Assembly: GCF_001677475.2 (NCBI RefSeq)
Contig: NZ_CP015229.1
Length of the DNA: 64,000 nucleotides
Direction: 5' to 3' (one strand)
Source: Escherichia coli
GTDB lineage: Bacteria; Pseudomonadota; Gammaproteobacteria; Enterobacterales; Enterobacteriaceae
Positions 32,538-33,251 of this stretch are shown here, one piece after another. Under the pieces are notes generated by a model. The model worked only from the letters and a program-made list of their open reading frames with translations. It had not been told where the DNA came from and did not search any database. Both the position numbers and the translations under genes were made by a program. Position 1 is the stretch's first letter; every line of letters starts with the position of its first letter.

Positions 32538-32554
32538 TGACAGGCGTTAGATTG

Positions 32555-32660
32555 CCTGATGCGCTACGCTTATCAGGCCTACGAAGAGCGTGCAATATAT
32601 TGATTTTGCAAGATTGTGTAGGCCGGATAAGGCGTTTACGCCGCATCCGGCATGAACAGT
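32555..32660. repeat. REP elements (two units) downstream of ybbP
   Basis: GCCTGATGCGCTACGCTTATCAGGCCTAC and GTAGGCCGGATAAGGCGTTTACGCCGCATCCGGCA. Confidence 0.75.
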
Positions 32661-32685
32661 GTGCATTTTGGCAATAAATATGAAA

Positions 32686-32741
32686 CCAACTGTCATGTCG
32701 GTTTTTTTAAAGGCCGAAGGTGGTAAACCTTCGGCCTTAGC
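32686..32741. terminator. Terminator module of repeat copy 1: stem CCAAC/GTCGG plus T-tract and adjacent GGCCGAAGG...CCTTCGGCC hairpin, immediately 3' of the minus-strand peptide ORF
   Basis: Palindromes read from sequence; the first hairpin is a one-mismatch copy of the terminator at 33162-33190. Confidence 0.5.
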
Positions 32742-32754
32742 TACGTTTCCTCAG

Positions 32755-32838
32755 TTATTCAATAAACTGACGGATCAGTTCCAGCAGCGCGATTAGCGCC
32801 TTAAGAACGATGAGAACTTTATCGAGAAAAGTTTTCAT
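32755..32838 (-). CDS. Candidate type I toxin: 27-aa hydrophobic single-helix peptide MKTFLDKVLIVLKALIALLELIRQFIE (DinQ/TisB-like)
   Basis: Hand-translated from the minus strand; not in the supplied ORF track. SD AAGGGAG 6 nt upstream lies inside the perfect palindrome CTCCCTTAAGGGAG (32845-32858); an in-frame upstream ATG at 32908-32910 would give 51 aa. Resembles E. coli DinQ (ALIALLELIR core) as I recall that sequence. Confidence 0.6.
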   Translation of the reverse strand: MKTFLDKVLIVLKALIALLELIRQFIE

Positions 32839-33063
32839 CCGTTGCTCCCTTAAGGGAGAAAGACAATCACAGCTTACCCTTACGTTGCCTGTAACTATGA
32901 TTTTCTTCATGTGCTAGATGAGGACTGCCTCTCTCCAAATTAGAGCACCAGAATCAGCACCACCTGTATCCTGACCAGGACTTAAAAGTACTTTTCCGCA
33001 CTGCGGTAATCCCTTGAGGCAGTATCACTACTAGCGTCGGGATTGTATCGCCAGCATAGCTGT

Positions 33064-33092
33064 TTGAATATGTAGGCATCCTGACTTATAAT
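33064..33092 (+). promoter_or_regulatory. Sigma70-type promoter TTGAAT-17 bp-TATAAT driving the candidate antisense sRNA
   Basis: -35 TTGAAT at 33064-33069, -10 TATAAT at 33087-33092, predicted start near 33099. Confidence 0.55.
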
Positions 33093-33098
33093 TCACTT

Positions 33099-33190
33099 GC
33101 TAGATGAGGACTGTTTCATTTCTGCCCGGAACCACCAAGTCTTGGGCGGAAAAAAAATAAAAAAACCGACTGTCATGTCGGTTTTTTTAT
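33099..33190 (+). ncRNA. Candidate ~90-nt antitoxin sRNA (AgrB-like), trans-complementary to the toxin mRNA leader
   Basis: Bounded by the promoter above and the intrinsic terminator AAAAAAACCGACTGTCATGTCGGTTTTTTT (33162-33190). Its 5' end GCTAGATGAGGACTG (33099-33113) is an exact direct repeat of 32913-32927, so the RNA is complementary to the minus-strand toxin leader. Confidence 0.5.
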
Positions 33191-33251
33191 ATCTGTATTC
33201 TGGTGCAACCATTCTGTTCTCACGACAATCGCCGTTTCAGAATACCGCCCA

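Follow-up and report, generated by a model that had tools for sequence, protein, structure and literature searches.

A predicted DinQ/AgrB-type toxin-antitoxin cassette at the ybbP-mnmH junction of Escherichia coli genomes without rhsD

Introduction

What lies between ybbP and mnmH in an Escherichia coli genome that does not carry rhsD at that site? In E. coli K-12 MG1655 the gene order is ybbP-rhsD-ybbC-ylbH-ybbD-ylbI-ylbG-selU, selU being mnmH, and Rhs elements are gained and lost. The 64,000-nucleotide stretch of E. coli DNA analyzed here (the window; contig NZ_CP015229.1) has the two genes side by side. A preliminary description of it held that rhsD is absent, that K-12 carries rhsD and associated genes between ybbP and mnmH, that the two genes are 714 bp apart in the window, and that the spacer is structured, with two repetitive extragenic palindromic (REP) sequences and a repeat module with a toxin and a small RNA (sRNA). 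All of this is borne out below. The non-Rhs haplotype very probably consists of a bacterial interspersed mosaic element (BIME) plus a self-contained 572-bp DinQ/AgrB type I toxin-antitoxin cassette working as homology with K-12 predicts.

The system of reference is the K-12 dinQ-agrA-agrB locus in the gor-arsR intergenic region (Weel-Sneve 2013, PMC3567139; Kristiansen 2016, PMC5066626). There the primary dinQ mRNA is translationally inert, and removal of 44 nt lets element 2 pair with element 3, which opens the hairpin formed by elements 3 and 4 around the Shine-Dalgarno (SD) sequence (PMC5066626). AgrB binds G88-A119, including element 2, so that the SD is closed again and RNase III cleavage is allowed; AgrA gives no protection (PMC5066626).

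Results

The spacer is replaced as a whole in K-12

The junction is bounded by two coding sequences, both taken from the open reading frame (ORF) list:

30123..32537, plus strand: ybbP, 804 aa, left border of the junction.
33252..34346, minus strand: mnmH/selU, 364 aa, right border of the junction.

Between them the spacer, 32538..33251, measures exactly 714 bp. It was compared with K-12 by sensitive BLASTN (window 32300-33500, word size 7, E-value up to 10). The 3' end of ybbP is 96.3% identical to K-12 up to 32543, six bases past the ybbP stop, where homology ends; it restarts at 33250, two bases before the mnmH stop. Window 32544-33249 shares no sequence with the K-12 ybbP-selU interval by BLASTN. 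In the whole 64-kb window no Rhs match was found with the K-12 rhsD island (BLASTN) or with RhsD (TBLASTN), and neither a YD-repeat core ORF nor island sequence, by which an Rhs element would be recognized, occurs anywhere in it. In K-12 the entire spacer is swapped for a 7.3-kb rhsD island.

An alignment of this junction with K-12 and other genomes had been proposed as a way to place the rhsD insertion point relative to the toxin and sRNA, with the prospect that the module might sit beside rhsD in K-12. The alignment, made with K-12 and with six E. coli junction variants, found no trace of the REPs or the module in the K-12 interval; the module does not adjoin rhsD there, because those 7.3 kb share nothing with the spacer. 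The insertion point itself cannot be defined relative to the toxin and sRNA, because the change is a replacement of the whole spacer.

The cassette encodes a DinQ-family peptide

The cassette, its toxin ORF and the SD hairpin lie in the spacer as follows:

32667..33238, no strand: toxin/sRNA cassette, 572 bp, one clean present/absent block relative to BIME-only and 58-bp junctions.
32755..32838, minus strand: toxin ORF, 27 aa, MKTFLDKVLIVLKALIALLELIRQFIE (NCBIfam DinQ model; RefSeq annotation elsewhere).
32845..32858, minus strand: SD/anti-SD hairpin CUCCC-UUAA-GGGAG, aligning with the K-12 dinQ SD stem-loop SL5.

The cassette limits come from the alignment of the six variants, in which the BIME-only spacers are 140 and 240 bp and the short one 58 bp. 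By sequence comparison the cassette is a paralogue of K-12 dinQ-agrAB, with about 70% identity, colinear with dinQ and the proximal agr gene.

The toxin ORF scores 40.9 bits against the NCBIfam DinQ model NF041472 (cut-off 30), which places it in the DinQ family, and 24.5 bits against the DqlB model NF041473, under that model's cut-off of 35. A precomputed match to Pfam PF28061 (DinQ) is on record for the toxin; neither the 27-aa nor the 51-aa ORF had a match in a local Pfam scan. RefSeq annotates WP_349808740.1, 'DinQ', at the same place in other genomes. The product would be a small hydrophobic peptide with a single transmembrane segment, and AAGGGAG lies 6 nt 5' of the ATG as a properly placed SD. 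From this family membership, by model score, we infer that the peptide may be toxic and depolarize the membrane. The 51-aa extended ORF (ATG at 32910) was considered as the product and rejected: it has no SD, the family model covers only its residues 29-50, and the NCBI annotation pipeline (PGAP) starts at the 27-aa ORF.

An AgrB-like sRNA is complementary to the toxin leader

The opposite strand carries the putative antitoxin, its promoter lying upstream of the sRNA and its target in the 5' untranslated region (UTR) of the toxin mRNA:

33064..33092, plus strand: predicted sRNA promoter, TTGAAT-17 nt-TATAAT (promoter scan, 10/12 matches).
33100..33190, plus strand: AgrB-like antisense sRNA, about 91 nt, the sole one in the cassette (Rfam RF02891).
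32914..32937, minus strand: sRNA target in the toxin 5' UTR (22-nt repeat), overlapping the counterpart of the K-12 switch element 2.

The sRNA matches Rfam RF02891 (AgrB) over model positions 1-84 of 84 at 50.3 bits (gathering score 40, E = 4.8e-07), and the predicted promoter ends 7-8 nt 5' of the start of that alignment. It is colinear with K-12 agrA. Its arrangement is that of the AgrB family, being divergent from the toxin, non-overlapping with it and complementary over at least 15 nt to the toxin 5' UTR. Rfam OrzO-P gave a single match, which lay on the terminator and was sub-threshold (24 bits, gathering score 60). An AA insertion specific to the window lies at 33150-33151, in the A-run of the sRNA just before the terminator; it is missing in the other 11 module sequences.

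A 22-nt direct repeat has its two copies here, at 32906-32927 and 33092-33113. Nucleotides 1-18 of the sRNA pair without interruption with 32914-32931, first by 14 Watson-Crick pairs and then by G-U and Watson-Crick pairs, and the K-12 AgrB site (G88-A119) aligns with 32912-32945. On the cognate leader, nucleotides 1-30 of the sRNA form a predicted duplex of -39.3 kcal/mol. The non-cognate duplexes are predicted at -33.9 kcal/mol for the sRNA on canonical dinQ and -26.1 kcal/mol for AgrB on the module leader. By homology with the K-12 locus, the sRNA would repress the toxin.

The leader retains counterparts of the K-12 switch and lacks a LexA box

Two further features of the toxin strand are predictions:

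33021..33068, minus strand: candidate toxin promoters, TTCAAA-15 nt-TACAAT (-10 at 33047-33042) or a -10 GATACT (33026-33021).
33016..33035, minus strand: possible 5' 'lock' segment GCUAGUAGUGAUACUGCCUC, complementary to the sRNA target in the minimum free energy (MFE) fold.

GATACT (33026-33021) aligns near the K-12 dinQ -10. For the switch elements, published K-12 coordinates were placed on the sequence and the window was aligned to them. Counterparts of elements 2, 3 and 4 are present and complementary: that of element 2 is UUUGGAGAGAGGC, that of element 3 is GUCUUUCUCCCU, GGAGAGAG is able to pair with CUUUCUCC, and the counterpart of the SD hairpin is at 32845-32858. Folded from an assumed 5' end at 33036, the mRNA pairs its 5' end with the sRNA target in a long stem, and truncated 5' ends give the pairing of elements 2 and 3. 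The full-length fold is more stable than shuffled sequences (z-score -5.6). As predictions, these folds and elements are consistent with the K-12 mechanism.

No LexA box was found by a consensus search of the whole window or by a relaxed core scan. The best LexA-like candidate in the spacer departs from the consensus at one core position and at 9/20 positions in total, against a perfect core (CTG-N10-CAG) and 5/20 mismatches for the K-12 box, which aligns to the window region with a 7-nt gap. With no LexA operator at its promoter, the module copy does not qualify as an SOS gene and is probably not SOS-induced. The best LexA-like site is a degenerate palindrome, CTGTTTGAATATGTAG, at 33058-33077 (CTG...TAG), lying over the -35 regions of both divergent promoters.

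Taken together, the K-12 precedent suggests the following scheme. The minus strand would yield a toxin mRNA whose SD is sequestered by a local hairpin, and in the primary transcript the leader would probably be locked by the 5' end. Processing at the 5' end may then let the leader segment GGAGAGAGGCAG pair with the anti-SD and free the SD, upon which the 27-aa membrane peptide would be translated and the inner membrane depolarized. The 5' end of the divergent sRNA, about 91 nt long and AgrB-like, would pair with the same leader segment, GGAGAGAGGCAG, so that the SD stays closed, and this pairing would probably direct RNase III cleavage. Bidirectional terminators at both ends may insulate the cassette from transcripts of the convergent genes ybbP and mnmH.

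Both ends of the cassette carry the same terminator hairpin

The two ends of the cassette share a hairpin, because each has one copy of a 27-nt direct repeat (32683-32709 and 33163-33189, 26/27 identical):

32683..32709, no strand: left bidirectional terminator-like hairpin, copy 1 of the 27-nt repeat (scan match on the minus strand, 32704->32683).
32710..32738, minus strand: 12-bp perfect hairpin just 3' of the toxin ORF (inverted repeat; MFE fold), aligning with the K-12 dinQ terminator hairpin.
33157..33190, no strand: right bidirectional terminator with a 14-bp stem, holding copy 2 of the 27-nt repeat (terminator scan, both strands).

The left hairpin would end the toxin mRNA on the minus strand and ybbP read-through on the plus strand. 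The right terminator is predicted to end the sRNA on the plus strand and would end mnmH read-through on the minus strand. The shared repeat hairpin is transcribed from one strand in the sRNA and from the other in the toxin mRNA. As a result, the terminator of the sRNA is complementary at 26 of 27 positions to the hairpin at the 3' end of the toxin mRNA, and their 6-nt loops match perfectly (UGUCAU/AUGACA). The predicted terminator-terminator duplex has -42.4 kcal/mol, and the cofold -63.1 against -46.7 kcal/mol for the two monomers. Such complementarity between sRNA and toxin mRNA terminators is missing in K-12 dinQ.

The remainder of the spacer is an ordinary BIME

Between ybbP and the cassette lie two inverted REPs and their linker:

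32554..32582, plus strand: REP of the GCCTGATGCG...CAGGCCTAC type, left arm of the BIME (second copy at 46275-46303, 0 expected by chance).
32583..32617, no strand: BIME linker between the REPs (sub-threshold Rfam ES036/CssrF match at 32575-32617).
32618..32652, plus strand: REP of the GTAGGCCGGATAAGGCG...CCGGCA type, right arm of the BIME (copies at 24027-24061 and 54537-54571).

The additional window copies of the right REP likewise have an expectation by chance of 0, and this REP has a sub-threshold Rfam naRNA4 match; the ES036/CssrF match scores 35.0 bits against a gathering score of 37.6. A REP-containing query found a median of 38 matching places per E. coli genome. The two elements are thus dispersed imperfect palindromes of REP consensus in a paired, inverted arrangement.

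The site has at least three states in E. coli

The junction was surveyed in 5426 complete E. coli genomes, with these counts:

K-12-type ybbP-rhs junction: 2877 genomes (~53%).
ybbP-module-mnmH junction: 1319 genomes (~24%).
Intact module: 1124 genomes of the 1319 module junctions.
Module with a 108-bp deletion: ~195 genomes, ~15% of carriers (by subtraction, 1319 - 1124).
Short-junction query: 784 genomes in total, including the ~195 deletion types.
Short or BIME-only spacers: ~590 genomes, at least 11% (784 minus the deletion types).

The site therefore has at least three states: an rhs island, a BIME with the module, and short or BIME-only spacers. The contrast between rhsD and a REP/toxin module drawn in the preliminary description is real, but the site is not limited to those two states and, as discussed below, the module is not new. 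The three haplotype classes each diverge immediately beyond both stop codons. The left edge of the K-12 rhsD island is 6 nt past the ybbP stop, and its right edge is a fragment of ylbG resembling an insertion sequence (IS), about 115 bp from the selU stop codon (K-12 13146-13632, retrieved record). A fourth junction state was also sought by inspecting four unclassified genomes, all of which proved to be module or short-spacer types.

The module is present at 95% identity or more in ~1325 genomes, close to the 1319 that have the contiguous junction, and the context mnmH-toxin-ybbP was found in 10/10 diverse contigs with the exact ORF. Therefore the module and rhsD behave as alternative occupants of the site. 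No module copy was found at any other site or on plasmids. Three full-length 'plasmid' matches to the module include a 1.2-Mb record and are probably chromosomal. The canonical dinQ locus is kept by module carriers, which have two places per genome (likewise L041 and L042).

The 108-bp deletion spans 32816-32923, between the microhomologies GATGAGAAC and GATGAGGAC (compare strain MZ1211). The start codon and SD are lost with it, as is most of the sRNA target; the sRNA gene is kept and becomes an orphan antitoxin. In E. coli TB06052 an IS200C element lies inside the module (NZ_CM129848.1 3473684-3474851).

Conservation of the module and alternative explanations

Over 14 kb (26000-40000), the closest of the 5426 complete E. 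coli genomes reaches 98.0% identity with the window, and Escherichia sp. E1V33 reaches 96.0%. Given this low best identity, the window lineage is poorly represented among complete genomes. Identity along 26000-40000 is patchy. The module is 99% identical to that of typical E. coli and of E1V33, against 92-97% for the adjacent parts of ybbP and mnmH, and the toxin is 100% identical in E1V33, where the flanks are at 96%. Nucleotide diversity (pi) was estimated from 12 carriers, 10 of which had been retrieved by exact ORF match, a choice that biases 156 of the 572 nt:

Module: 0.0049.
Adjacent BIME: 0.023.
Flanking genes: 0.018-0.031.
Flanking genes, third codon positions: 0.054-0.065.

The module is thus 4-6 times less diverse than the flanking coding sequence, and no site segregates in 32807-33008 among the 12 sequences. 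The canonical dinQ locus shows no such excess conservation and diverges as fast as its own flanks.

Either strong purifying selection or recent spread could account for this pattern. The module may have arrived recently and been spread by recombination as a young selfish cassette, and its low diversity would then reflect that history and not purifying selection on a long-established locus. Its near identity across the window, typical E. coli and E1V33 within more divergent flanks fits such a history, as does its clean present/absent block structure. Since canonical dinQ diverges with its flanks and the module has a GC content of 43% against 54% for the window, recent spread has to be given some weight. 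Selection is favored because the low-diversity tract has sharp edges: there is no diversity gradient into the flanks, the BIME is already at 0.023, and on the mnmH side mismatches resume within 10 bp. The repeat search and the six-variant alignment found neither a target-site duplication nor terminal inverted repeats at the cassette ends, no integrase or other mobility signature was found for the cassette, and the lack of copies elsewhere or on plasmids speaks the same way. In a scan of genome contigs with a degenerate ALIALLELIR pattern, the module at ybbP-mnmH was found only in Escherichia sp. E1V33; in E. albertii and E. whittamii, whose ybbP-mnmH junctions were not inspected, the scan gave only the canonical gor-side DinQ locus, which also counts against recent spread. 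We regard recent spread as possible, though the less likely of the two.

Could the cassette instead be a decaying, non-functional relic of a DinQ-type system, its LexA control and second sRNA lost and its toxin no longer produced? One would expect such a locus to lack a LexA box, to have a single sRNA that pairs imperfectly with its target and to have a weak toxin promoter, as this one does, and the deletion in ~15% of carriers and the strain with IS200C in the module are in line with decay. Yet the ORF, SD and hairpins are intact, the sRNA promoter is near-consensus, and a distinct Escherichia clade has the identical toxin. Under neutrality a relic would be expected to change no more slowly than synonymous sites, whereas the module is 4-6 times less diverse than its flanks and invariant over 32807-33008. 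A relic is therefore improbable.

Still more improbable is that the sRNA acts mainly elsewhere, for example on canonical dinQ mRNA, or that the cassette is mainly a terminator or insulator. The carriers do hold the canonical locus, the predicted duplex of the sRNA with canonical dinQ is near the cognate one (-33.9 and -39.3 kcal/mol), and bidirectional terminators stand at both ends. However, AgrA-dinQ at -36.0 kcal/mol is reported to be non-functional (PMC5066626), so -33.9 kcal/mol is unlikely to suffice, and BIME-only and 58-bp junctions function with the cassette absent. Finally, that rhsD was deleted here and the module is ordinary core flank also found beside rhsD in K-12 is scarcely credible: the K-12 interval shares nothing with 32544-33249, the window holds no Rhs remnant, the ~1325 module genomes nearly match the 1319 contiguous junctions, and no evidence in its support was found.

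Several observations weigh against a functional cassette of the K-12 type as the account of this haplotype. The cognate pairing (-39.3 kcal/mol) is far weaker than that of AgrB with dinQ (-51.5 kcal/mol) and slightly better than that of AgrA with dinQ (-36.0 kcal/mol), and AgrA is reported not to repress dinQ (PMC5066626). The toxin promoter is weak or ambiguous, with a 15-nt spacer in one candidate and 7/12 matches in the other. In the predicted folds the SD is never clearly open (probability unpaired 0.2-0.4). About 195 module-carrying genomes are without the toxin start, and ~640 genomes were unclassified at the thresholds used. With these points counted, a self-contained DinQ/AgrB cassette next to a BIME is the reading that we prefer.

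Discussion

The ybbP-mnmH gap is a multi-state accessory site, and the K-12 gene order should not be assumed there. The name 'damage-inducible toxin DinQ', transferred in RefSeq by a hidden Markov model (HMM), may mislead for this copy; because it lacks a LexA box, the label 'damage-inducible' is unsupported. A conserved cassette together with a recurrent toxin-only deletion makes a natural system for asking what selects chromosomal type I toxin-antitoxin loci. Beyond annotation hygiene, the importance of the locus is otherwise small. One could go further and see in it an SOS-uncoupled DinQ paralogue with its own orthogonal sRNA, under strong constraint, regulated by 3'-3' kissing of the terminators besides the 5' UTR pairing and exclusive with the RhsD island; that full combination seems to us rather unlikely.

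Among known systems, the closest is K-12 dinQ-agrAB. They share a toxin of 27 aa that has one transmembrane segment and the core ALIALLELIR. In both, the long 5' UTR is structured, has a hairpin at the SD and allows alternative pairings, and the antisense sRNA is divergent, does not overlap the toxin gene and pairs by its 5' end with the leader. The module differs in its chromosomal site, in having one sRNA rather than two and in missing the LexA operator; having neither two tandem agr genes nor the gor-arsR location, it is not a K-12-type locus. In addition, the leader region matching K-12 nt 5-40 is shortened, the pairing is shorter and richer in G-U, and there is an extra terminator hairpin, shared with the sRNA. 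The module is also accessory (~24% of genomes), whereas canonical dinQ has a match in 5415 of the 5426.

The dinQ-like (dql) genes, found on chromosomes and plasmids and co-occurring with dinQ, were defined by Kristiansen et al. 2016 (PMC5066626), and T1TAdb predicted antisense RNAs for them (PMC8594479). With its conserved 5' UTR elements and its co-occurrence with dinQ, the module fits the description of the chromosomal homologue among the dqlA/dqlB genes of Enterobacteriaceae. These genes are often annotated with a longer N-terminus, to which the 51-aa ORF of the module is equivalent. The module is not dqlB, as the NF041473 score is below the cut-off and plasmid dqlB loci are only ~68% identical; no closer plasmid relative than dqlB was found. 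In Photorhabdus luminescens (L043 629-2239; also L008), DinQ-like toxin units are tandemly duplicated at a period of 848 bp, and a 64-nt repeat accompanies each; its similarity to the 3' end of a tRNA gene hints at an integration-site context.

The layout recurs in zorO-orzO, tisB-istR-1 and shoB-ohsC, in which a divergent, non-overlapping sRNA pairs with a long toxin 5' UTR; their toxin and sRNA families are other than those of the module. In type I systems like zorO-orzO the toxin 5' UTR requires processing for translation (T1TAdb, PMC8594479). The K-12 RhsD element occupies the same ybbP-mnmH interval and has no sequence relationship to the module. The BIME does not differ from known BIME/REP elements: it has two inverted REPs of both common types with a short linker, as genome-wide repeats, and other strains have one or two BIMEs at this junction with the cassette missing.

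RefSeq lists the identical peptide under the name 'MULTISPECIES: damage-inducible type I toxin DinQ'; it occurs on at least 1000 contigs, some of them from Shigella, and PGAP annotates dinQ at the ybbP-mnmH junction in other genomes through an equivalog HMM. The AgrB-like partner sRNA was unannotated in the RefSeq records inspected, and searches of the literature, made under dqlA and under names of the ybbP-mnmH interval, turned up no paper on this junction. Given these annotations, the module is not new; it is an already annotated member of the dinQ-like family and part of ordinary accessory-genome variation. What the present comparison adds to that family is incremental: a member with no LexA box and a single sRNA, its exclusivity with rhsD, a toxin-only deletion allele, strong conservation, and complementarity between the terminators of sRNA and toxin mRNA.

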